A stretch of 59,749 nucleotides of DNA, from the UHGV virus genome UHGV-0185078. One strand, given 5' to 3'. The notes beneath the pieces are model-generated. The model worked only from the letters and a program-made list of their open reading frames with translations. It was not told the DNA's origin and ran no database searches. Of the stretch, positions 6,562-31,624 are shown one piece after another. The DNA is from a virus. Position numbers and translations under genes: made by a program. Within the stretch, counting starts at the first letter, position 1. Every line of letters begins with the position of its first letter.

Positions 6562-6970
6562 GTTGCCAGGCTGGCAGACACGTTTATTAACCACAGTAAA
6601 GGAGTTGTCATCGACTCCTTTTTCTTGGGGTGAAAATGATTGCTGCACCTTCGCGGCAAAATGTGTTGATGCGCAATACGGAACAAATATCTACGAACAA
6701 GTCGCTGGAAAATATAGTACAGAGCTTGGAAGTAAAAAGTTCACTATTGAAAGAGTTGGAACCGCTTACCTTCCATTGTTATTGGATACATATCTGAGCG
6801 AACGCGTTAACAAGAACTATGCGCAAAGAGGCGATGTGGTTACATTTGAGGGAGCATTGGGCTTAACTGCTGGCATATTATGGACTGGATATGTATGGGC
6901 TATGGGTCCGAACGGTGTGGAAACATTCCCGCTTAATAAGATCAAAATTACGGATATTTGGAGGGTCTAA
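6536..6970 (+). CDS. tail assembly protein (lambda K-like position), possible NlpC/P60-type Cys motif
   Basis: Start chosen at ATG 6536 preceded by GGGGGAG RBS (track ORF from 6386 would overlap upstream gene by 175 nt); contains ENDCCTF motif; stop overlaps next ATG (TAATG). Confidence 0.4.
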   Translation: MRQGSPMSKLPGWQTRLLTTVKELSSTPFSWGENDCCTFAAKCVDAQYGTNIYEQVAGKYSTELGSKKFTIERVGTAYLPLLLDTYLSERVNKNYAQRGDVVTFEGALGLTAGILWTGYVWAMGPNGVETFPLNKIKITDIWRV

Positions 6971-9900
6971 TGCCACCAGCAATAATTGGAGCAGCGATAG
7001 CTTTAGGTGCGTCGGCTGCTGCTGCGGCTAGTATTATTTCGGCTACTACCGCTCTCGTTATCGGTATTGCTGCAACTGCGGCAGGTGCTCTTTTAACTAA
7101 GACACCAAATATGAACTTTGATGCTTACAAGGGGCAGCAAGAGCGTAAACAGGTTCTGCGTGCGGCTACAGCGTCACGCTCTGTTGTATATGGCACGACC
7201 GTAGCGTCCGGACTATTAGCATTTGCGGAGGAAGAAGCTGGAGAACAAGATGAAGGTGAATGGATGCATCTTGTTGTTGTTCTTGCTAGTCATAAATTGG
7301 AAGGTATTGAAACAATTTGGTTGGGTGATGACGGAATTGATTGGTTTGGTGAAAACGCTACTTGGGAGTTTCATAACGACCGTCAGACTGTTGACCCATT
7401 CATGTTAAGACATTGTCCTTCCTGGAAGGAGGATATGATTGGCAAGGGTATTGCATGGCTACGTTTAAGCTTAAAGTTTGATGCTGAAAAATTCCCATCA
7501 GGTTTGCCAAACGTCAAGGTGTTGAAAAAGGGACGTAGAGTCTATGACCCACGTTCCGGTCAAACTGTCTTTAGCGATAATGCTGCTCTTGTTATTCTTG
7601 ATTATTTCCGCACGTATTTAAAGCGCAAGGACGAGAATATCAACTGGGACCAATTCAAGGAAGCTGCTAACATCTGCGATGAGTTTGTTACTAACGCAGA
7701 TAACACTACGGAAAGACGTTACCGCATTAACGGTGAGTTTGAAGTGGATGAAGCACCTGCCAAAATCCTTGATGCTATGCTTGAAGCTTGCGGCGGGGAG
7801 CTTACCTATATTGGTGGTAAACACGGTCTGTTAGTTGGTGCTTATTACGGTCCAGCTACCATGACTCTGGATGAAAGCTGCATTGCTGGGGACATTAAGA
7901 TTATCCCTGAGACATCTTATAAAGAACGCACCAATACCATTACAGGTACATTTGTTGACCCGAAGCAAACATACGCTGAAGCAGATTTTCCTCCAGTTGT
8001 GGTTAAGGAATGGGTGGAAAAAGATGGCGGCGAAATAACGCAAGACATGGATTTCCGCTTCGTTACAAGTGAATATCAAGCGCAACGGCTCGCTAATATT
8101 ATTTTACGTCGTAAGCGTGTTGGTCGAACAATTGAAGTGCCATGTAACATGAAGGGGTATAAATTCCGCCCGGGCATGTATGTTAACGTAACAATTTCAA
8201 ATATTGGAATGAAAAATGTTGAGATGCGCGTTACTAAATGGTCATTCGATCCTAAAGGTGGGATTAATCTTGTCCTTCGTCAAGACTTCCTGGAAATGTG
8301 GGACGACGCTATTGGTAAACCAATGGAGCGCCCGGATCTGGTAGACCTCCCGTCTGGTGCTATTGCTCAACCGCAAAACCTTCAGTATCAGGCATTGCAG
8401 ATTAGCGATGTTGTGCAGGGTGTTTTAACGTGGAGCAATATTGGACAGGTAGCGTATAACCGCGTAGCCGTGCGACAGGGAGGTACAACGGTTTGGACCG
8501 CACAAGTCCCTGGCCAAAACGTTCGCGTTACTGGGTTGCTGCGGGGCGCGTATACAGCACATGTTCAAGCGGTAGCCTATAGTGGGGCGGTATCACCGGA
8601 AGCGTATCTGGAATTTAATATTCAAGCTCCACCTCCTCCAACGTCTATTGAAGTGCAACAAGGTTACTTTGCAATAAGTCTAATCCCTAAATCCGCGGAT
8701 ATTGCAAACGTTAGCACGCAATATGATTTCTGGACGTCCGGTGAAACAAGATTGTCTTCCGTGTCTACAGATATTGTGGAACGCGAAGCGACTCGTAAAG
8801 GTATGGGTACAACATGGACTTCAGAAGGTTTGAAGAATGGCCACACTTACTACTGGTATGTTCGCACTATTAACGCTTTTGGATCGTCTGCATTTGTAGA
8901 GGTTGCTGCATTGTGTTTCACAACAGCTACAGACTTAATGCCACAGATTGATTCTGAGTTCAAGAAGACGGAGACTTATAAAGAGCTTACTGCTGAAATT
9001 ACAGGTGTTAAAGACGGTGTTACACAACTCAGTCAAACTGTAGTAGACACAGAAAAGCGTTTAAGTCAAAGTGTTAGCAACGTTCAGCAAAGCGTTATTA
9101 CTTTGGACGGCGTTGTTCAAGATCAGGGTGTTACCATCAACGAACAGGGGCAACTCATTGATGCACAGGGTCGATTAATTGATACGCAAGGTAAAACTAT
9201 TCAGCAAGTCAGCGCCACTGTACAGGAAACAAGTAAAGCAGTCGTAGATCTGGAAGGTAATGTTAACGCGCAATGGGGTGCTAAGGTACAGGTTGACAGT
9301 AAAGGGCAAAAATACGTTGCTGGTATCCAGTTGGGTATGGAAGGTTCAGGCGGTGCTGTACAATCTTACTTCATGGTGAGCGCTAACAACTTTGCTATCT
9401 ATAACCCGACAAACAGCGTAGCAGAATTGGCATTTGCTGTTAAGAACGGTCAAGTGTTCATGAAGGCTGCATTTATTGAAAATGGTACAATTGACAGCGC
9501 TAAAATTTCAAACCAGATTCAGTCAACAAACTACGCTAGCAATAGCGCGGGTTGGATGATCAACAAGAACGGTAGCGCTCAGTTTAACAACGTGACGGTA
9601 CGGGGTACGGTATACGCTAACAACGGATCTTTCACAGGAACAGTGAACGCAACAAGCGGTAAATTCAAGGGTACTGTGGAAGCTACCAGTTTTGTGGGTG
9701 ATGTCGCGAATATGTGTGTCATTGCTGAGTCTGCAATACCAAACACACAAACTACAAGTTCAAGAACCTGGACAAAAACTTTCAAAGACTCATCTGGTTC
9801 AACATTATCTAAAGACTTTGTGTTGTTATTAAGTTATAGTTTAACCGCATATACATCAAATCAGGCAAGTCGTATAATTGTGACTGCTAACATAGGTGGA

Positions 9901-10092
9901 ACATCAATAACAAGGAGGATTGAGCGAGCTGCCAATGGGCCTGCTATGGATGTAACCATACCTTTAGCAGTGAAAGGAAAGACAGCGTCGAGGGTAACAA
10001 TAAGCGTTAAGGAGGAATATACGAATGTCTATGGGAGTTACTTGCGTCCGTCTGTAATATTAATGACTCGCGGAACTGGTAGTTGGTCGTAA
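6970..10092 (+). CDS. tail tip / host specificity protein (lambda I+J-like)
   Basis: 1040 aa from ATG 6970 (GGAGGG RBS 4 nt upstream); hydrophobic Ala/Gly-rich N-terminus, large central body; position after M/L/K-like genes. Confidence 0.75.
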   Translation: MPPAIIGAAIALGASAAAAASIISATTALVIGIAATAAGALLTKTPNMNFDAYKGQQERKQVLRAATASRSVVYGTTVASGLLAFAEEEAGEQDEGEWMHLVVVLASHKLEGIETIWLGDDGIDWFGENATWEFHNDRQTVDPFMLRHCPSWKEDMIGKGIAWLRLSLKFDAEKFPSGLPNVKVLKKGRRVYDPRSGQTVFSDNAALVILDYFRTYLKRKDENINWDQFKEAANICDEFVTNADNTTERRYRINGEFEVDEAPAKILDAMLEACGGELTYIGGKHGLLVGAYYGPATMTLDESCIAGDIKIIPETSYKERTNTITGTFVDPKQTYAEADFPPVVVKEWVEKDGGEITQDMDFRFVTSEYQAQRLANIILRRKRVGRTIEVPCNMKGYKFRPGMYVNVTISNIGMKNVEMRVTKWSFDPKGGINLVLRQDFLEMWDDAIGKPMERPDLVDLPSGAIAQPQNLQYQALQISDVVQGVLTWSNIGQVAYNRVAVRQGGTTVWTAQVPGQNVRVTGLLRGAYTAHVQAVAYSGAVSPEAYLEFNIQAPPPPTSIEVQQGYFAISLIPKSADIANVSTQYDFWTSGETRLSSVSTDIVEREATRKGMGTTWTSEGLKNGHTYYWYVRTINAFGSSAFVEVAALCFTTATDLMPQIDSEFKKTETYKELTAEITGVKDGVTQLSQTVVDTEKRLSQSVSNVQQSVITLDGVVQDQGVTINEQGQLIDAQGRLIDTQGKTIQQVSATVQETSKAVVDLEGNVNAQWGAKVQVDSKGQKYVAGIQLGMEGSGGAVQSYFMVSANNFAIYNPTNSVAELAFAVKNGQVFMKAAFIENGTIDSAKISNQIQSTNYASNSAGWMINKNGSAQFNNVTVRGTVYANNGSFTGTVNATSGKFKGTVEATSFVGDVANMCVIAESAIPNTQTTSSRTWTKTFKDSSGSTLSKDFVLLLSYSLTAYTSNQASRIIVTANIGGTSITRRIERAANGPAMDVTIPLAVKGKTASRVTISVKEEYTNVYGSYLRPSVILMTRGTGSWS

Positions 10093-10098
10093 TAAATA

Positions 10099-10127
10099 AT
10101 TAACCCCTCGTTTGAGGGGTTAATTTT
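10099..10127. terminator. bidirectional rho-independent terminator between J-like gene and lipoprotein gene
   Basis: Perfect inverted repeat attaacccctc-gttt-gaggggttaat flanked by A/T runs on both sides. Confidence 0.7.
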
Positions 10128-10360
10128 CAATAATCAATTACACAGTTTGAAGGTGAACCAATTCGTCGGTATTCATGATCAATCTCATGGCACCATTGTC
10201 CAGTCATTGGAAGCTTTTCGGTATCATAAATTAAAGAACCGTTACCATCACGATCTAACGGTTTTGGAATTACGCCGGAATTAGGTTTACCAGTATTTAA
10301 ACCGTTACCACATGCAGTGAGGGATAAAGTTAATGCCAGCATAATTAAAGCGCGTTTCAT
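10127..10360 (-). CDS. small lipoprotein, candidate superinfection-exclusion protein (Cor/Llp-like)
   Basis: 77 aa, MKRALIMLALTLSLTAC signal peptide with lipobox L-T-A-C; GGAG RBS; antisense to flanking tail genes and bracketed by terminator and intergenic promoter region. Confidence 0.6.
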   Translation of the reverse strand: MKRALIMLALTLSLTACGNGLNTGKPNSGVIPKPLDRDGNGSLIYDTEKLPMTGQWCHEIDHEYRRIGSPSNCVIDY

Positions 10361-10442
10361 TGGGACTCCTTTGTGTTGTTGTCAAGGTTCAATTCTAATA
10401 TACTTGTTGTGTTGAGTAAGTCAAATAAATGTGGGAGATATT

Positions 10443-13400
10443 ATGGCAACTCGTTTACGTGGTACTTTAGTTGATGGTTTAAATAAACCAATTGTCAACG
10501 CTACAGTTGCGCTTTTAGCGAAAGGGAATAGCTTATTGGTATTGTCCGGTAGTGAAGCTATCTTTAAAACAAGCGCAACCGGAACATATGATATTACAGT
10601 CCAAACAGGCTATTACAAGGTTATTATCGGTCCGCAAGGTAGCGAGCCTTATAAAGCTGGTGAAATTGCTATTTACGCGGACAGTAAAGAAGGTACGCTG
10701 AATAACTATTTAACTTCCTGGGCACCGGAAGAGTTAACTCCGGAAGTTATTGCACAGGTTAAAGATTTAGTTTCACAAGCTGAGACAGCTAAGAATGCTT
10801 CTGCTGCATCTGCAACTAAATCCGAGCAAGAACGCGTTAAAGCAGAAGCTGCGGCACAGAATGCTGTAAACACCGCTAACGGTATGAAGGCATCTATTGG
10901 TCTGACTACCGCGCCTAGACATGTTGCAGATATTACAGTCAATCCGTCATCATTCTTGGGTTTTATACGGATTTTACGGTCTAGTACAGTAGGTTATCCG
11001 GATATCGCGTCCTCAGAAAACGCATTGGCCGGTTTTGTCTCCGCTATGGATGGAACCCCTGGATTTATAGGTGTTTTTGTTGGAGACATGACCGGGACTA
11101 TATATAGCTATAGATGGATTAAGGACGTTGGTGTTACATGGTGGAAGCAAGTTAACTATTCTACTGTCAACAGATATACCCAGCTAAACGCAGAAACTAA
11201 TTTTACAAACCAATTAGGCAATGCAAAACTCCTCATAGATAATAATAAAGTTTGGGGAGCATATGATAATGAAAATAAACGCTTCATACCTCTAGCAATA
11301 GCTCAAGGTGGTACAGGAGGAACTACTGACGCGGATGCTCGTACAAACTTAAGACTTGGTTCTAACGATACACCTCAATTCAGAAACCTTAATCTTGTTA
11401 CAGTAGCAGACTCCGCACAAGCGCCTTCCGGCATTGTGAGCGGTTATTTAAATAATAGCTCTGGAGTTCAAAGATGCCGCTACCGCATATATTCTGAAAT
11501 AAGAGGTGACAATAAAGCGTGGTTAACCTTACACCTTCAATCAGACACAGCAACAAATAAATATGCTGGTCTAAGCGTTGATGGTAATTTTCAAATCAAT
11601 GGAAATTTTATTGGTAATGCTTTGCAGTTGTCAGACGCTCCAAATTCCAGGATTAATCTACAGTTAGATCGTTTTTATCAAAGTGCTAACGAAACGGTTA
11701 TTTATACTCCGTCTCGTCAAGCATATATGACAATTTCTAATAACAAGACTTGGGGTGCTTATGACGCGGAAGCTCAAAACTTCATCCCTTTACCTATTAA
11801 TAGGGGAGGGACTGGTGCTTTAACAATATCCGACGCTAAGACTAATCTTCAAATTCCGTCTGTAGGTGGGGGTGATTGGTTAACTTATAACGCTCCTCCT
11901 GGCGTGGAAGCTGGAAAGTATTATCCAGTTATCATCGATATGGCATACAGCTCTTTATATGCTTCTGGTGCTTTTATAGATATAAAGACACGTTCTGCCG
12001 CTGGTGACGATCCAATGAACTGTTGCACTTTTAACGGATTTATTAGATGTGGTGGTTGGAGCGACCGAAAAGACGGCGGTTATGGTTACTTTAACAACTA
12101 TGCAAGAAATGAAATTGCTATGAAATGTATTCTTTCTTCATCTAAAGATGCGGAAAGATACGTTGCAATATATGTTGAAGGTCGTGGTTTCCCTCTTCAA
12201 TTGCGTGTCCCTGCATTCTGTGAAGTAACAGTACCAACATCAAACTTTACTTATAAAAATACAACCTATGCGTGGGGTACAGCTAACCCTGCAACGGATT
12301 CTGTAGCTATAAACACCTTATTTGATTTTTCATTAAACCGCGTTGGTTTTTACCAGGCCACGACAGAAGGTAATTATTATATCGGAAATGGGGAACGTAT
12401 TGTTTTATCTAACGGAATGTCTGTGGGTGAAGAGTTAAGTCTAACCACACCTAAAGTGTCTTTCAGTGGAACCATTGCGGCTGGTAACGGTGTCATTGCA
12501 GATGGAACATCTGTATCCAACGCTACTTTTTATAGCCGTTATCGTGTTGGTGACGTAATATATGGCAGCGAGTTTCGCGCAAGTGAAAATGCTGGTCAAA
12601 TTATAGTCCGCGATCCAACGGGTGGGACTGCGCATCAATTCTTTAACTTCAATCTCAACGGGACATTCAGCGCCCCCGCTGGTTTGCTATCTTCTACTGG
12701 AGTAGATTGGAACGGTCAGATTAATACCGTCAATAAATTCTATGGGATTGCTGGACAAGTTAACACACCAGAAAACAATGTGGTTTATGGTGGTATACAT
12801 GTTGGATTCAGCGGCAACTATGCTTTCCAGATATGCGGAAGGAAAGGTAAATCCTTCTTCCGCACATTTGAAGCAGGAGTAGAAGGACAATGGCAACAAT
12901 TAGTAACTAAAGGGAACTACGGAGTTGGTCTAATTGGAACTTTTAAACCGGAAGATGGTTCAAGTGGTTTTTACACTGATTCCGATGGGGCAAATACTTG
13001 GTCGCCCGCTAACGGAGGGGGTTTTCAATCTTCGTATACTCAGCAGCGAATATTCCAATTTTGGATGACATCAAGCTCGCAGGGGTTTATTCGTTTTAAC
13101 AATAGCGGTAACGCGCAAGCGTCTAAGACAGATAGACCTTGGACAACGCTTCAAGCTGCTGGTACATCTGATATTAACTTCAAACGTGTTCACGGTGAAA
13201 TGGACACAGATGTTGCGTTAGATAATATTAGCAAGCTTGAATTTGTTTATTTCAACTACTTGTCCGACGGTCCGGAGCGTGAAATCCGTAGGGGTATTAT
13301 TGCTCAACAGGCCCAGGAAGTTGATCCTGAATATGTACATAGTGCTGAAACATCCGGAAAAATGACTTTGGATTCTAACCCATTGTTATTGGATGCATTA

Positions 13401-13529
13401 GCTGCAATACAATCCCTCAAGAAAAAGGATCAAGATAATAAAGACCGCATTAGCAAGCTTGAAACTGAAGTTGAGGAACTCAAAAAGCTAGTTGCTACGC
13501 TTGTTAATAAAGATCAACCATTACCATAA
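10443..13529 (+). CDS. tail fiber protein with C-terminal intramolecular chaperone (peptidase S74-like) domain
   Basis: ATG 10443 after GGGAGA RBS; repeated GGTG..A.TNL fiber motifs; C-terminus SDINFKRV...GIIAQQAQEVDPEYV...LLLDALAAIQSLKK matches the endosialidase-chaperone pattern. Confidence 0.8.
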   Translation: MATRLRGTLVDGLNKPIVNATVALLAKGNSLLVLSGSEAIFKTSATGTYDITVQTGYYKVIIGPQGSEPYKAGEIAIYADSKEGTLNNYLTSWAPEELTPEVIAQVKDLVSQAETAKNASAASATKSEQERVKAEAAAQNAVNTANGMKASIGLTTAPRHVADITVNPSSFLGFIRILRSSTVGYPDIASSENALAGFVSAMDGTPGFIGVFVGDMTGTIYSYRWIKDVGVTWWKQVNYSTVNRYTQLNAETNFTNQLGNAKLLIDNNKVWGAYDNENKRFIPLAIAQGGTGGTTDADARTNLRLGSNDTPQFRNLNLVTVADSAQAPSGIVSGYLNNSSGVQRCRYRIYSEIRGDNKAWLTLHLQSDTATNKYAGLSVDGNFQINGNFIGNALQLSDAPNSRINLQLDRFYQSANETVIYTPSRQAYMTISNNKTWGAYDAEAQNFIPLPINRGGTGALTISDAKTNLQIPSVGGGDWLTYNAPPGVEAGKYYPVIIDMAYSSLYASGAFIDIKTRSAAGDDPMNCCTFNGFIRCGGWSDRKDGGYGYFNNYARNEIAMKCILSSSKDAERYVAIYVEGRGFPLQLRVPAFCEVTVPTSNFTYKNTTYAWGTANPATDSVAINTLFDFSLNRVGFYQATTEGNYYIGNGERIVLSNGMSVGEELSLTTPKVSFSGTIAAGNGVIADGTSVSNATFYSRYRVGDVIYGSEFRASENAGQIIVRDPTGGTAHQFFNFNLNGTFSAPAGLLSSTGVDWNGQINTVNKFYGIAGQVNTPENNVVYGGIHVGFSGNYAFQICGRKGKSFFRTFEAGVEGQWQQLVTKGNYGVGLIGTFKPEDGSSGFYTDSDGANTWSPANGGGFQSSYTQQRIFQFWMTSSSQGFIRFNNSGNAQASKTDRPWTTLQAAGTSDINFKRVHGEMDTDVALDNISKLEFVYFNYLSDGPEREIRRGIIAQQAQEVDPEYVHSAETSGKMTLDSNPLLLDALAAIQSLKKKDQDNKDRISKLETEVEELKKLVATLVNKDQPLP

Positions 13530-13546
13530 CCACATCTAACTTCAAC

Positions 13547-13571
13547 AGCGCGTCTTCGGGCGCGCTTTTTA
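13547..13571 (+). terminator. rho-independent terminator after tail fiber gene
   Basis: agcgcgtcttcgggcgcgct hairpin followed by ttttt. Confidence 0.7.
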
Positions 13572-13700
13572 TTGGCTGTCAATCCTGATTTACAAAATCT
13601 TTACATATGGATCATTGTAAAAAGCATGTTAAGGGGTATGCTTTACTTCGTAACCAGTTGGTTACATCCGCTTAACAAATCCATATATGGAGATTTTCCT

Positions 13701-14408
13701 ATGTCTGACATGACTCTTTTACCTACTAATCTCGGTGGCGACGGTTTCGGCGGTGAAGCTGGTGCGGCTGGTATCGGTGGCGCGATCGGTGGCTTAATTG
13801 GTTCCTGGATCGGTAATGGTTGGGGTGGCAATGGTGGTTGGGGTGGTCGCGGTAACTTCGCTGGCCCGGTGGAAGTGCAAGCTTCTGTTGACACCAACGC
13901 AATTCTGCAAGCTATCAACAACGGTACTCTTCAGACCATTCAGGGGCAGAACGGTACTAACCTGACTGTTGAGCGCTCCGCTGCTTCTACCTATAACGGC
14001 ATCACTCAGCAGAACACTCAGAACATGCTGGCTTCCGTTCAGGGCTTTGCTGGTCTGAACACGCAAATTCAGGGTGGCACCAGCCAAGTGCTCGCGGCTC
14101 TGTGTAGCAACGAAGCGGCTAACATTACCCGTTCTTTCCAGGCCCAGTTAGCAGCCGAGAAGTGTTGCTGCGAAACCAACCTGAACATCGAGCGTCAAGC
14201 TGAAGCTACCCGTGCGCTAATCCGTGACCAGCACGCACAGGCGCAAGCAGTTCTGATCTGTGACCTGAAATCTCAGTTGCAGGAAGCTCGCTTTGCAAAC
14301 TCTCAGTTGGCACAAACGGCTGGTCTTACTTGTAAGATCAATCAGGTTGAGCAGTTAGTTAACTTTAAACTGCCAACTCCTCCAACTCCTCCGACTGGCT
14401 GCTGCTAA
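13701..14408 (+). CDS. glycine-zipper / Cys-cluster protein of unknown function (possible fiber-associated adhesin)
   Basis: ATG 13701 after GGAGA RBS; N-terminal GGDGFGGEAGAAGIGGAIGGLIGSWIGNGWGGNGGWGG, Gln/Asn/Thr-rich middle, CCC motif and C-terminal PTPPTPPTGCC. Confidence 0.55.
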   Translation: MSDMTLLPTNLGGDGFGGEAGAAGIGGAIGGLIGSWIGNGWGGNGGWGGRGNFAGPVEVQASVDTNAILQAINNGTLQTIQGQNGTNLTVERSAASTYNGITQQNTQNMLASVQGFAGLNTQIQGGTSQVLAALCSNEAANITRSFQAQLAAEKCCCETNLNIERQAEATRALIRDQHAQAQAVLICDLKSQLQEARFANSQLAQTAGLTCKINQVEQLVNFKLPTPPTPPTGCC

Positions 14409-14429
14409 TCGTTGAAGTGTGGTTAAACT

Positions 14430-14464
14430 AAAGCGCCTTTCGCTCCTCCGCTTGGGGCGCTTTT
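14430..14464 (+). terminator. candidate terminator after Gly-rich protein gene
   Basis: aagcgcc...ggcgctt inverted repeat (long loop) followed by ttt. Confidence 0.35.
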
Positions 14465-14479
14465 AACAGAGGTACTATC

Positions 14480-14848
14480 ATGAGCCACATTAAAATCGCA
14501 ACGATGGGAATGCCACGGGTCAAATTGCCTAAGGTTGCTTTACCTCGCATTAGCGTAGGCGAGCACCACCATGAACATGAGAAAGAGGAATATAAACATG
14601 CTCACTCTTATGCTCGAGATCATGAACATATGGCAGCTATGTCAAATGTTCTTGACCGGATGGAAGAACCTCCGCATACGTGGGCGGCGTACCACGACAA
14701 GCCCGGCGGTATGATGTCCATCGTTGAAATGGAATACCGCGAATTAATGGAGTGTAAGAAAGAAGGCGACCGCGCAGGGATCATGAAAGAGTTGACTGAT
14801 CTTGCCGCAGCTTGTACTTGCGCTCTTCAAAAAATGAAAGATATGTAA
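14480..14848 (+). CDS. His-rich protein, possible MazG-like nucleotide pyrophosphohydrolase domain
   Basis: 122 aa; HHHEHEKEEYKHAHSYARDHEH stretch; C-terminal EYRELMEC...KELTDLAAA resembles ExxE...ExxD of all-alpha NTP pyrophosphatases. Confidence 0.35.
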   Translation: MSHIKIATMGMPRVKLPKVALPRISVGEHHHEHEKEEYKHAHSYARDHEHMAAMSNVLDRMEEPPHTWAAYHDKPGGMMSIVEMEYRELMECKKEGDRAGIMKELTDLAAACTCALQKMKDM

Positions 14849-14863
14849 GAATAGGAAGCCGAC

Positions 14864-15394
14864 ATGCAAAACGTAAACGCAGGAATGGGCGTAACCCAGT
14901 TCAACGGGATGAAACCGAAAAACTCCATCAACATGGGCGGTGTTGATTGGACGTTACGTCGGGACGCTACCGATTCAACTACCATGTTCCCACACCAGAA
15001 GGTGAGCTGGCTTAATGCAGGCTGTGAACCTATGGGTGATGGAAGGGTTCATTACTGTTGGATTATGGGGGTGATACCGCCTACGCCGGGCACTATCGAA
15101 CGACCCGTGAATGTGATGTATGTCGGCTTCCACCAGTTTAAAATCACGATCGCTCCAAACTCCATTAGTCAGTCTGATCTTGATCGTATGCACGTTTACG
15201 TCAGCGATGGTACAGACTTTGCAGGGGATTTTATTAATAAGTTTCTTGGTATGCAACCTGAGCAGCCTGTAGAAGCACGCGAGCATATTAGCCCGTGGCC
15301 ACCCATGATTGATCAGGAAGTGCTGCAACCAAAGACCGCTCAAACGGTCCCTCAGAAACCGGAGCAGAAGGTGAAACCAAATGACGAAGAATGA
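14864..15394 (+). CDS. hypothetical protein
   Basis: 176 aa ORF with AGGAAG RBS. Confidence 0.45.
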   Translation: MQNVNAGMGVTQFNGMKPKNSINMGGVDWTLRRDATDSTTMFPHQKVSWLNAGCEPMGDGRVHYCWIMGVIPPTPGTIERPVNVMYVGFHQFKITIAPNSISQSDLDRMHVYVSDGTDFAGDFINKFLGMQPEQPVEAREHISPWPPMIDQEVLQPKTAQTVPQKPEQKVKPNDEE

Positions 15395-15665
15395 AGGTAT
15401 TGATAAAGTTGTTGAAGGACTTTCTATTCGTGCTCATGTTATAGCCGATGAAGGTCATGATCAACTTACTATTATGAAATCCGCATTCAGCGATTTCAAG
15501 TCGCTTGGAAACTTAAGCGGGTTAATGACAGTAGTGTCGACCGGAAAATTAACGCAGCAGCAAATCAGTCTAGCTCAACGTATTGCTGTTAAAGTTATTG
15601 CGGTACTTGGGATGATTGAAGCTGAAAAGCCCAGTTCCAAGCAGGATAACGAAAGCGACCTTTAA
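15381..15665 (+). CDS. hypothetical protein
   Basis: 94 aa ORF, GGTGA RBS, overlaps upstream gene end. Confidence 0.45.
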   Translation: MTKNEGIDKVVEGLSIRAHVIADEGHDQLTIMKSAFSDFKSLGNLSGLMTVVSTGKLTQQQISLAQRIAVKVIAVLGMIEAEKPSSKQDNESDL

Positions 15666-15676
15666 GGAGGTCTACG

Positions 15677-15880
15677 ATGTGTGGTAATACTAACCGTTGC
15701 TGTCTAGGCAGTCCTGCAACACAAGCAGGTATACTTCAGGGGCAATTGGCTCAAGCGGCGTGTAATTGCAAAACTTTTCAACCAGTAGCCCCAACTCCTG
15801 TTTTTGTGAATGCTTTTGCACCGCCTGTTTTCAATACTTTTGGCGTATACCCATACGGTGCTTTCTTTCGTATATTCTAA
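15677..15880 (+). CDS. small Cys-rich hypothetical protein
   Basis: 67 aa, AGGAGG RBS; MCGNTNRCC...ACNC; last gene of the rightward unit before a bidirectional terminator. Confidence 0.45.
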   Translation: MCGNTNRCCLGSPATQAGILQGQLAQAACNCKTFQPVAPTPVFVNAFAPPVFNTFGVYPYGAFFRIF

Positions 15881-15887
15881 GAAGAGA

Positions 15888-15913
15888 AAAGGGGGCAAAC
15901 GCCCCCTTTCTTT
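15888..15913. terminator. bidirectional terminator at the convergence of rightward and leftward units
   Basis: aaagggggc-aaac-gcccccttt perfect hairpin with A-run upstream and T-run downstream. Confidence 0.65.
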
Positions 15914-26298: not shown

Positions 26299-27102
26299 TT
26301 ACAAGCCGTTCAGGGCTTCCGGTACTGGTACAGGTACGCGACCAGTCACACCATTAAATTTCTTCCAGCGTGCATACTGGGTTTTAACAGTATCTTCGTT
26401 CAGACCGTGACGACCAGCCAGGTTCAGAACATAAGAGATCGGAGCAGGCTGGCCCAGCGTAGCGCTAATCTGGTCCATCAGAGCCCAGGCACGACCGCAG
26501 GAAGTTTCCGGTTGCGGACGGCGAACACCGTTCTGTTCCGGCATACGATTAGCTTCTTTTTCTTTCTCGCGGAGCTCTTTAGCGCGCGCTTTTTCCGCTT
26601 CTTTTTCTGCCTGTTTTGCAGCACGGATCTTGTCTTTGAAGCCTTTAATAGTAGATTCCAGTTCGTCGACCATGCTCTGAGCAGCAGTCACTGCACCGGA
26701 CAGATCTTCACCTTTGGATTTTTTAACAACTGCTTTCAGATCTTTCAGAGCATTCTTTAAATGCTTCAGCTGTTCAGAACCCTTAGATTCTGCTTCCGTA
26801 ATCTGTTCAACAGTGCTTTCATCGGTAATACCGGATAAAGCAAACTTCACGGTTTCAACTGCCTGGGAAAGAGCGGTAAATTTGTTTTCCGCTTCAGCGC
26901 GGATTTCAGCTTGTTTCTTTTCAGCGGCAGCTTTTTTCTCTGCTTCTTTTTTCTCTTTTGCTACGCGTGCAGCTTCAGCAGCAGCGGCTTTCTTAGCTTC
27001 TGCGTCATTCACAGTAGCTTCTTTCTTTGCAGGTTTAGCAGATTTTGCGGCGGCAGCGGCAGCGGCTGCGGCAGCAGCTTTTTTGTCTTCAATGTTGCTC
27101 AT
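26299..27102 (-). CDS. Lys/Ala-rich histone H1-like protein with conserved C-terminal domain
   Basis: ATG 27102 with GGAG RBS; poly-Ala run and KKAAAE repeats; C-terminal WALMDQISATLGQPAP...YARWKKFNG paralogous to C-terminus of ORF 43605-44219. Confidence 0.55.
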   Translation of the reverse strand: MSNIEDKKAAAAAAAAAAAKSAKPAKKEATVNDAEAKKAAAAEAARVAKEKKEAEKKAAAEKKQAEIRAEAENKFTALSQAVETVKFALSGITDESTVEQITEAESKGSEQLKHLKNALKDLKAVVKKSKGEDLSGAVTAAQSMVDELESTIKGFKDKIRAAKQAEKEAEKARAKELREKEKEANRMPEQNGVRRPQPETSCGRAWALMDQISATLGQPAPISYVLNLAGRHGLNEDTVKTQYARWKKFNGVTGRVPVPVPEALNGL

Positions 27103-27229
27103 TCTCTTCACTCCGAATTGTTATGGGTTCGTTTGTTACCAACGGGGTTAAATGTACCAAAGGATTTTGTGACACGCAACCCCTTATCTGAACATTTTTA
27201 AAAATATTTTTGATCAAGCTTAGAACTTA

Positions 27230-30739: not shown

Positions 30740-31624
30740 TTACTGCTGCCACGGCGGGACTGCTGCTTGTGCCGGATGGGGTTCAGCTTGCTGCTGTGGC
30801 TGCGCTTGCTGCTGCGGTGCTGCTGCCTGGCCCGGCTGCGCTACCTGTTGCGCCCACGGTTGCTGAGCTGCTTCCGGCGCTACTGGTTGTTGTACCGGAG
30901 CTTGCTGAACTGGCTGCTGTGGCGCTGCGTTTTGAGCAGGGTTATCCCACGGCTGCGGTGCAGCATTCTGCCACGGTTGAGCTGCTGCGCCCTGCTGCGG
31001 TGCTGGTTGCTGCTGCACAGGCTGCTGAACTGGCTGCTGTTGCTGTACCGGAGCTTGCTGCTGTACAGGCGCTTGCTGTTGCTGAGCAAACGGGTTAGCT
31101 GCTGACTGCTGTGGCGCTGCGCCTGGGAAAGTCGGTTGCTGTGCTGGCGCACCTGCACCAAACGGGTTAGCTACTGCTGGAGCACCCATTGATGGAGCCT
31201 CTGCTGCTTTTTCTGCATATTTAACCGGATCGTTGATGTTAGCGTAACCGTTAGGCTCGTTGCTGTCTTCATAACCTTCCTGAGAACGAACTTTCAGACG
31301 CAGGTTCAGCGGAATGTTATGCAGTTGCGCAGGAGTATCCCAGCGAATTACACCAACTGCATGAGACAGAGCGCCCAGTTGCTCGTAAGCGATACGCACA
31401 GTATCTTCGTTGTCATTGATGACGTTATAACGAGCAAAGATTTTACGCCCTTTAGCAAAACCGTCAATGATGCTAAACGTTGCCTGGATCGCCATACCGC
31501 CATTTTTGGTCGGTTTAAATTCAGATGCTTCAATTACTGCTTTATACCAACCTTTCGGCAATGCGCCGTAAGAAGGTGCTTGATAGCTGCTCGCGTCAAA
31601 GTGGAAATTAGTTGGCATAGTCAT
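30740..31624 (-). CDS. putative ssDNA-binding protein with long Gln/Pro/Ala-rich C-terminal tail
   Basis: 294 aa; N-terminal globular part then about 160 aa of A/P/Q low complexity with PWQ/PWD repeats ending PPWQQ; adjacent to Sak4-like ATPase. Confidence 0.45.
   Translation of the reverse strand: MTMPTNFHFDASSYQAPSYGALPKGWYKAVIEASEFKPTKNGGMAIQATFSIIDGFAKGRKIFARYNVINDNEDTVRIAYEQLGALSHAVGVIRWDTPAQLHNIPLNLRLKVRSQEGYEDSNEPNGYANINDPVKYAEKAAEAPSMGAPAVANPFGAGAPAQQPTFPGAAPQQSAANPFAQQQQAPVQQQAPVQQQQPVQQPVQQQPAPQQGAAAQPWQNAAPQPWDNPAQNAAPQQPVQQAPVQQPVAPEAAQQPWAQQVAQPGQAAAPQQQAQPQQQAEPHPAQAAVPPWQQ

Follow-up and report, generated by a model that had tools for sequence, protein, structure and literature searches.

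The described systems that the gene treated here resembles include morons and superinfection-exclusion proteins, such as HK97 gp15, T4 Imm and Cor/Llp, and in sequence it belongs to phrog_9288, a PHROGs family of unknown function. The gene (coding sequence 13701-14408, ATG at 13701 and TAA at 14406-14408, 235 amino acid residues) lies in the virus genome UHGV-0185078, whose 59,749 nucleotides (nt) are the window of this analysis; all features below are on the + strand unless marked otherwise. The genome belongs to Seuratvirus (Queuovirinae), in the CAjan/SeppeHuegi group, and the gene is carried by a virulent phage, as a unit that closes the tail module. Over 13400-14700 the identity is 98.8% with Cronobacter phage CSP1 and 96-98% with CAjan, slur01 and SeppeHuegi, and the sequence is already in the databases as a 'hypothetical protein'; what is new here is how broad the family is, the plan that its members share, the expression signals and the null alleles found in nature. 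The reading that we favour, at a probability of roughly 0.35, is that the product is made abundantly in the infected cell as an accessory protein that is non-essential and associated with the membrane.

The gene is real and strongly conserved. Its product matches phrog_9288 over the full length (E = 3.9e-130, 433.5 bits, residues 1-235 on profile positions 1-233 of 234), which was its only match in PHROGs. A profile search of 1.8 billion representative proteins returned 122 representatives, and one of the 90%-identity cluster set returned at least 897 clusters, none of which has a name or a Pfam domain; these include BASEL coliphages, crAss-like phages and Clostridium phages, and an assigned function was found for none. 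The median ratio of nonsynonymous to synonymous substitution rates (dN/dS) is 0.17 over 169 pairs and likewise 0.17 in the Gly-rich part, indicating purifying selection, and the polar domain is as conserved as the glycine zipper that precedes it. The gene proposed at 13701-14408 in a preliminary description of this DNA is therefore confirmed. ATG 13701 is the conserved start, the N-terminus MSDMTLLP being kept across genera, and not the start of the longer open reading frame (ORF) from TTG 13572.

Close relatives occur in Seuratvirus, Nonagvirus, Sashavirus, Drexlerviridae (Hanrivervirus and Changchunvirus), Yersinia phages and Edwardsiella phage eiAU, and the family as a whole spans enteric siphophages, crAss-like phages, Clostridium phages and viruses attributed to methanogens. 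The relatives in AT-rich gut phages match phrog_16490, a distant branch also of unknown function, and phrog_9288 weakly; their carriers include crAss-like phages, phages of Clostridium perfringens, one of Butyrivibrio and viruses that have been attributed to Methanomassiliicoccales, and their host labels from metagenome-assembled genomes are unreliable because these relatives look like binned phage contigs. A Pfam-A scan of the window protein gave 0 families at E <= 0.1, and no glycine-zipper Pfam family was matched; nothing meaningful came up when the protein, four neighbours and two distant homologues were scanned against Pfam, NCBIfam and PADLOC, and a family-profile search of the PDB gave no convincing relative. 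The papers on eiAU and 9g contain no virion proteomics, the comparative paper on Seuratvirus does not mention the gene, and a literature search on the 'spike' annotations in crAss-like phages found nothing relevant.

The gene is dispensable for plaque formation, as viable phages bear amber, ochre, frameshift and deletion alleles of it. An amber codon (TAG) stands at codon 83 in both SeppeHuegi from Switzerland (locus L001, 9302-10009) and Skure from Denmark (L119, 542-1249), which are distinct Seuratviruses with 98.5% identity over 1.5 kb and different fibre ends; the two alleles differ at five positions, all synonymous, three of them after the stop codon. JakobBernoulli, a Hanrivervirus (L004, 4815-5519), has an ochre codon (TAA) two aligned positions upstream of the amber site. 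In VogelGryff (L120, 1267-1932), residues 1-183 are fused to unrelated sequence and the C-terminus is lost together with all three partner genes described below; thus the gene and its cassette can go together. Salmonella phage 36 (L026) carries a frameshift in the Gly region and is the sole exception among 30 IMG/VR loci, the other 29 of which read as intact. Decayed remnants follow the fibre gene in the T5-like Epseptimaviruses vaffelhjerte, rokbiter and BSP22A (remnant loci L003 4760-5520, L117 3250-4010 and L118 3440-3780), which suggests, from sequence comparison, that T5-like phages imported the gene with a fibre module and that its function was then lost. Fragments of the 3' end persist in other isolates. 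The stop codons of SeppeHuegi, Skure and JakobBernoulli cluster in the LQTIQGQN motif.

Dispensability, which the preliminary description had listed as counting against its proposals, thus holds for plaque formation on Escherichia coli K-12, since the null alleles are in phages that plate there. Isolation on K-12 may select for or tolerate loss of the gene, which matters where laboratory collections are taken to represent natural phages. Culturable phages also hold amber, ochre and deletion alleles beside near-identical intact ones, so that a direct comparison is possible.

The protein is built from a short acidic tag, a zipper or hydrophobic segment, a stretch rich in Gly, aromatic residues and Arg, about 160 polar residues and a Pro/Thr-rich tail. 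Gly accounts for 22 of residues 1-56, alongside 5 Ala, 4 Ile, 4 Leu and 3 Trp, and the protein as a whole is polar and of low charge, with 10% Gln, 8.5% Asn and 8.5% Thr; the residue counts thus support the Gly/Ala/Ile/Trp N-terminus and the Gln/Asn/Thr-rich remainder of the preliminary description. The Gly-rich region covers residues 12-56 (13734-13868) and consists of a zipper core (residues 20-38) followed by the Gly/Trp/Arg stretch, and glycines at 26, 30, 34, 38, 42 and 46 form a GxxxG zipper that can be read directly. The core, with 8 Gly in 19 residues, has a borderline mean Kyte-Doolittle hydropathy of 1.27, and the homologous segment of distant members is a hydrophobic helix of 16-20 residues with values of 1.6-1.9 (e.g., GGGGLIGILLIAALFGGFG and AWWIIIFLIFAFLGW). 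The idea of a membrane-active glycine zipper is thus plausible given the helix of the distant homologues, but the window segment itself is at the borderline. The Pfam family Gly-zipper_Omp was touched by 2 of 37 family members, at E = 0.029.

The Gln/Asn/Thr-rich region (residues 64-223, 13890-14369) carries the motifs GQN.TN and VQGFAGLN and is predicted to be helical at low confidence. AlphaFold2, run with a 21-sequence alignment, gave a disordered N-terminus and a single helix over residues 65-220 with a predicted local distance difference test (pLDDT) of 50-79. No 28-residue window of the family profile showed significant 3.5-residue periodicity. Within this region the CCC cluster (residues 155-157, 14163-14171), also noticed in the preliminary description, does not vary among 21 relatives, whose identity goes down to 59%; in a distant alignment of 37 members, C157 is nearly invariant and CCC is present in the consensus. 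Cys187 (14259-14261), in the motif LICDLK, is invariant in the 21 relatives as well, and distant members have LCDAK there. The tail LPTPPTPPTGCC (14370-14405) keeps KLPTPxTPP, so that the PTPPTPP portion of the PTPPTPPTGCC end once highlighted is conserved, but the final GCC is not: GCC(GC) is found in only some relatives, and several end in -TL, -VA or -AS. Distant members have tails rich in Thr or in Cys/Gly/Tyr. The order of elements is kept in them all the same, with an M-x-D-M-x-L-x-P-like tag, the hydrophobic/Gly-zipper segment and the Gly/aromatic/Arg stretch, followed by one to four QGFxGLN motifs, CCC, EG-ATR-LI, LCDAK and a low-complexity tail.

The gene appears to have its own expression signals. 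Upstream, the lateral tail fibre gene (10431-13529) stops 171 nt before the gene start, and its transcript is ended by an intrinsic terminator (13547-13571; stem-loop 13547-13566 plus a T-run) with an 8-bp GC-rich stem and a UUCG loop, which is strong (-14.1 kcal/mol, z = -2.8). Our own motif scan gave a sigma-70-like promoter candidate (TTGTAA-16 nt-TATGCT, 13615-13642), which a stricter promoter scan did not report; candidates at equal distance in relatives match better (TTGTCA-16-TAGAAT in L021 and L028, TTGGCA-17-TATTCT in eiAU). A hairpin, GTAACC-AGTT-GGTTAC, follows in the presumed 5' untranslated region (13650-13665), where RNAalifold on 14 sequences from several genera found 5 pairs, one of which (45-54) is AU in 7 sequences and GC in 6. 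The inverted repeat GTARC-N4-6-GYTAC, with such AU/GC covariation, lies 35-50 nt 5' of the start codon across genera, in the window and at L004, L006, L010, L013, L021, L022, L025, L028, L033, L036 and L121, and may be a stabiliser of the mRNA 5' end or a regulator binding site (a DNA operator). The ribosome-binding site GGAG (13689-13692) is read directly 8 nt 5' of the ATG, as had been claimed. Downstream, a hairpin with UUUU (14431-14465; stem-loop 14431-14462) is probably a weak terminator (-15.6 kcal/mol centroid, z = -0.98, four U only), weaker than the upstream one, and a terminator is annotated at the matching position in phage SA126VB. The gene does therefore lie between two terminators as far as the upstream side goes, but the downstream side is weak; taken together, the ribosome-binding site, the flanking hairpins, and a promoter candidate and a 5' hairpin that both keep their position across genera support the view of an independent unit. 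With its succession of promoter candidate, 5' hairpin, ribosome-binding site, coding sequence and terminator, the gene would be built like a moron.

Codon usage suggests that this unit is very highly expressed and is among the most expressed genes of its phage: its frequency of E. coli optimal codons (Fop), a measure that is affected by amino acid composition, is 0.751, the highest of the 84 ORFs in the window, and that of the major capsid protein is 0.734. Capsid-protein levels are also reached by two ORFs of unknown function in the replication/modification region, at 26299-27111 (-) and 30740-31624 (-), with Fop of 0.75 and 0.71.

The genomic position of the gene varies widely. A tail-fibre gene stands upstream in only 21 of 73 distinct relatives, and the crAss-like, Clostridium and Yersinia phages do not have this neighbourhood: the gene lies between terS and the capsid gene in the crAss-like phage cr116_1, among early genes in C. 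perfringens phage HMD-PC1, after TerL at locus L064 and, in Yersinia phage vB_YenM_25, next to a block of small genes with divergent transcription. Such varied placement suits a mobile accessory gene more than it does a fixed part of the virion, and the tail-fibre neighbourhood is a misleading cue for annotating the gene.

In the reading that we favour, the protein would be made in large amounts in the infected cell, where its glycine zipper would attach to or insert in the cytoplasmic membrane. It could self-associate through zipper packing together with the polar helical part, the Cys cluster might cross-link it or bind metal, and the envelope of the infected cell would be conditioned thereby. 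The role that we favour would be a guard against superinfecting phages or a stabilisation of the membrane until lysis, and the protein would stand outside the adsorption apparatus and be unneeded for plaque formation. We prefer a membrane location because the distant members carry a membrane-type hydrophobic helix and are expected to go to the membrane, because a mobile promoter-to-terminator unit is found in varied genome positions, and because the cytoplasmic membrane is the envelope layer common to diderm and monoderm hosts and to the wall-less methanogens to which some of the viruses are attributed. A further reason is that in the CAjan record several small anonymous proteins go under 'structural protein' but this one under 'hypothetical', which is soft evidence against a virion role.

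Several observations weigh against this reading. The weakly hydrophobic zipper of the window protein may not span a membrane, no signal peptide was found in the protein, and the charges around the zipper segment are too weak for a topology call by the positive-inside rule. The AlphaFold2 model is poor (mean pLDDT 54.6), and neither heptad nor hendecad periodicity is significant in the single sequence or in the family profile, and therefore we do not call the polar region a coiled coil. A codon bias at the level of the capsid gene is unusual for known superinfection-exclusion proteins, and a lipoprotein encoded at 10127-10360 may already provide exclusion at the level of the receptor. Most loci place the gene among late or structural genes, the crAss-like relatives are annotated as 'spike protein/glycoprotein' or 'outer capsid protein/viral fiber', and we found no experimental data on any family member.

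Unlikely, yet the best-surviving alternative, is a dispensable fibre or decoration of the virion, in which the N-terminus would fix a helical stalk of polar residues onto the capsid or the tail, by analogy with the reovirus sigma-1 tail, and the Pro/Thr- or Cys-rich tip, or the product of a neighbouring gene, would face the environment, e.g., gut mucus. Capsid-level codon bias and the mostly late-region position keep this explanation alive. The polar, low-charge composition is like that of fibrous phage proteins, decoration proteins are typically non-essential in keeping with the null alleles, and such a function would be independent of the host envelope. In the AT-rich branch, moreover, the next gene encodes a BclA_C/TNF-like trimeric knob, and the crAss annotators chose the label 'viral fiber'. 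However, the hydrophobic helix of the distant members would drive the protein to the cell membrane, whereas tailed virions are lipid-free; the early-gene position in a C. perfringens phage and the naming in the CAjan record also speak against it, as does the placement of a sigma-70-type promoter candidate behind a strong terminator and not in a late operon.

More doubtful is a wider proposal, in which viruses of the gut carry an accessory module that has gone unrecognised and has this protein as its common core, an abundant membrane-inserting oligomer with a function new to tailed phages. It might, for instance, remodel or seal the cytoplasmic membrane of the host or prevent the entry of genomes in a host-independent way, and the hosts would include Proteobacteria, Bacteroidota and Firmicutes, together with those of viruses attributed to methanogenic archaea. 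The partners would differ by lineage, with the BclA_C/TNF-like knob in the AT-rich branch and proteins of 122, 176 and 94 residues in the enteric phages. The genes for the latter three (14480-15665 in the window) follow the gene in 34, 38 and 27, respectively, of the 73 distinct loci that are intact. In the AT-rich branch, two small genes precede the gene, and genes for the BclA_C/TNF-like protein, a charged protein and a phrog_3754 protein follow it. Comparison of the enteric and AT-rich cassette genes by hhalign gave no convincing homology (best 38-45%), and, judged from their sequences, the two cassettes share only the gene studied here.

An accessory of lysis appears improbable. A fusogen-, spanin- or holin-like protein would use a fusion-peptide-like N-terminus and a helical body to aid disruption of the envelope, and the weak matches of the family profile to the PDB are indeed nearly all to influenza HA2, covering the fusion peptide and the next helix (E = 0.03-0.15), with one coronavirus HR1 construct among them. 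With its candidate membrane segment at the N-terminus, its long predicted helix, its Cys and its Pro-rich tail, the protein recalls the features of i-spanin and o-spanin together (lambda Rz/Rz1). Spanin mutants plate normally in the laboratory, and in cr116_1 and L059 the gene is within a few genes of the lysis genes. Against this, an endolysin, a holin, an i-spanin and an o-spanin are already encoded at the other end of the genome (in SeppeHuegi), the protein has neither heptad periodicity nor a lipobox nor a C-terminal membrane helix, and homologues occur in phages of monoderm hosts (Clostridium), in which a spanin is unneeded. We reject a spanin on the grounds of the existing i-/o-spanin in the phage group and of these relatives in phages of monoderm hosts. 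A class I fusion protein was rejected as well: hhalign against H3 HA2 gave 0.8% probability over six columns (WIGNGW versus FIENGW), and the best PDB match by hmmsearch was at E = 0.03. The likeness to HA2 is one of composition and not a homology.

The preliminary description had mentioned bacteriocins, and it is less probable again that the protein is a bacteriocin- or microcin-type toxin, released at lysis to permeabilise the membranes of neighbouring cells. Its cysteines, the high expression suggested by codon usage and the repeated loss in laboratory isolates, which could reflect a cost, are compatible with such a toxin, and the Gly/Ala/Ile zipper may resemble the Gly-rich core that class II microcins such as colicin V and microcin L have. 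The protein is nevertheless far above microcin size at 24 kDa (the class has precursors of <12 kDa), its N-terminus MSDMTLLPTNLGG has by eye no double-glycine leader, and family scans of the neighbouring ORFs turned up no exporter or transporter and no immunity gene. It matches no bacteriocin family in Pfam or NCBIfam, its long polar domain is conserved as strongly as the zipper, and a virulent phage gains no obvious benefit from killing potential hosts.

The other function suggested in the preliminary description, a gp38-type adhesin capping the lateral tail fibre and setting host range, is very hard to sustain in spite of the Trp-containing, Gly-rich composition and of a location immediately behind the lateral tail fibre gene in several groups of enteric phages, as it fails in every defining feature that we examined: there is no Pfam-A match and no PHROGs match other than phrog_9288, the Gly-rich sequence is a single block conserved across genera (dN/dS 0.17) without hypervariable segments, the fibre (N-terminal phage_tail_N domain in Pfam) bears its own C-terminal Peptidase_S74 chaperone and is separated from the gene by the strong terminator, most relatives lack an upstream fibre gene, the protein stays the same behind fibres with different distal parts, and null alleles are found in phages that plate on K-12.

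Turning to the neighbours, the 122-residue protein (14480-14848) has a His-rich stretch, GEHHHEHEKEEYKHAH, and a C-terminal part that is weakly MazG/PRA-PH-like (Pfam E = 0.016, below threshold); it is annotated in BASEL as 'putative pyrophosphatase' and has no sequence relative in the PDB. The 176-residue partner gave a decent structure model that matched no known fold. The last ORF of the cassette (15677-15880, 67 residues, phrog_25697) is Cys-rich, beginning MCGNTNRCC and continuing with a Gln-rich part, CNC, a Pro-rich part and the C-terminus YPYGAFFRIF; with its Cys clusters and its Gln-rich and Pro-rich parts it echoes the 235-residue protein in flavour, and a bidirectional terminator follows it at about 15887-15910. 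On the other side of the tail fibre gene, between it and the gene for the J-like tail tip, a 77-residue ORF (10127-10360, -) starts with MKRALIMLALTLSLTACG, which is a lipoprotein signal that includes a lipobox. Its annotation in SeppeHuegi and CAjan is just 'hypothetical', and from its sequence it is probably a superinfection-exclusion lipoprotein of the Cor/Llp type. The J-like tail tip ORF itself (6958-10092) has a hydrophobic start of 45 residues rich in Ala, Gly and Ile (MPPAIIGAAIALGASAAAAASIISATTALVIGIAATAAGALLTK) if TTG 6958 is used.

Several known systems share features with the protein. Like influenza HA2 and the HR1 region of coronavirus S2, it has a Gly-rich, Trp-containing N-terminus followed by a polar part predicted to be helical, with Cys in the middle, and the annotators of the crAss-like homologues made the same 'spike' association; unlike them, it has no heptad repeats and no C-terminal anchor, ending instead in a Pro/Thr tail, and there is no lipid envelope to fuse. 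With T-even gp38 (T2, T6 and S16) it shares a Gly-rich sequence with aromatic residues and a gene that follows the long tail fibre gene, but gp38 has many glycine motifs alternating with hypervariable loops where the window protein has one block, and the window protein has no sequence match to gp38, is dispensable and belongs to a family often encoded away from tail genes. Its glycines form a textbook glycine zipper (GxxxGxxxG), as in other segments of that type, but, in contrast to these and to class II microcins, a conserved domain of 180 residues extends beyond the zipper. The lambda Rz/Rz1 spanins are similar in having an N-terminal membrane segment, a helical body of periplasmic length, conserved Cys and a Pro-rich end, and in being non-essential on plates, but the window gene is outside the lysis cassette and its product has no lipobox. 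Within phrog_9288 and phrog_16490, the window protein shares the tag, the hydrophobic/Gly segment, QGFxGLN, CCC, the LCD motif and the low-complexity tail, a membership that says nothing on mechanism since both families are of unknown function. From morons and superinfection-exclusion proteins it differs in having no sequence relationship to them, a much higher codon adaptation and a very broad distribution that is independent of receptor type; yet it resembles them in being encoded in a putative promoter-gene-terminator unit at the end of the tail module, in being small and perhaps membrane-associated, and in being dispensable for lytic growth and lost on laboratory hosts.

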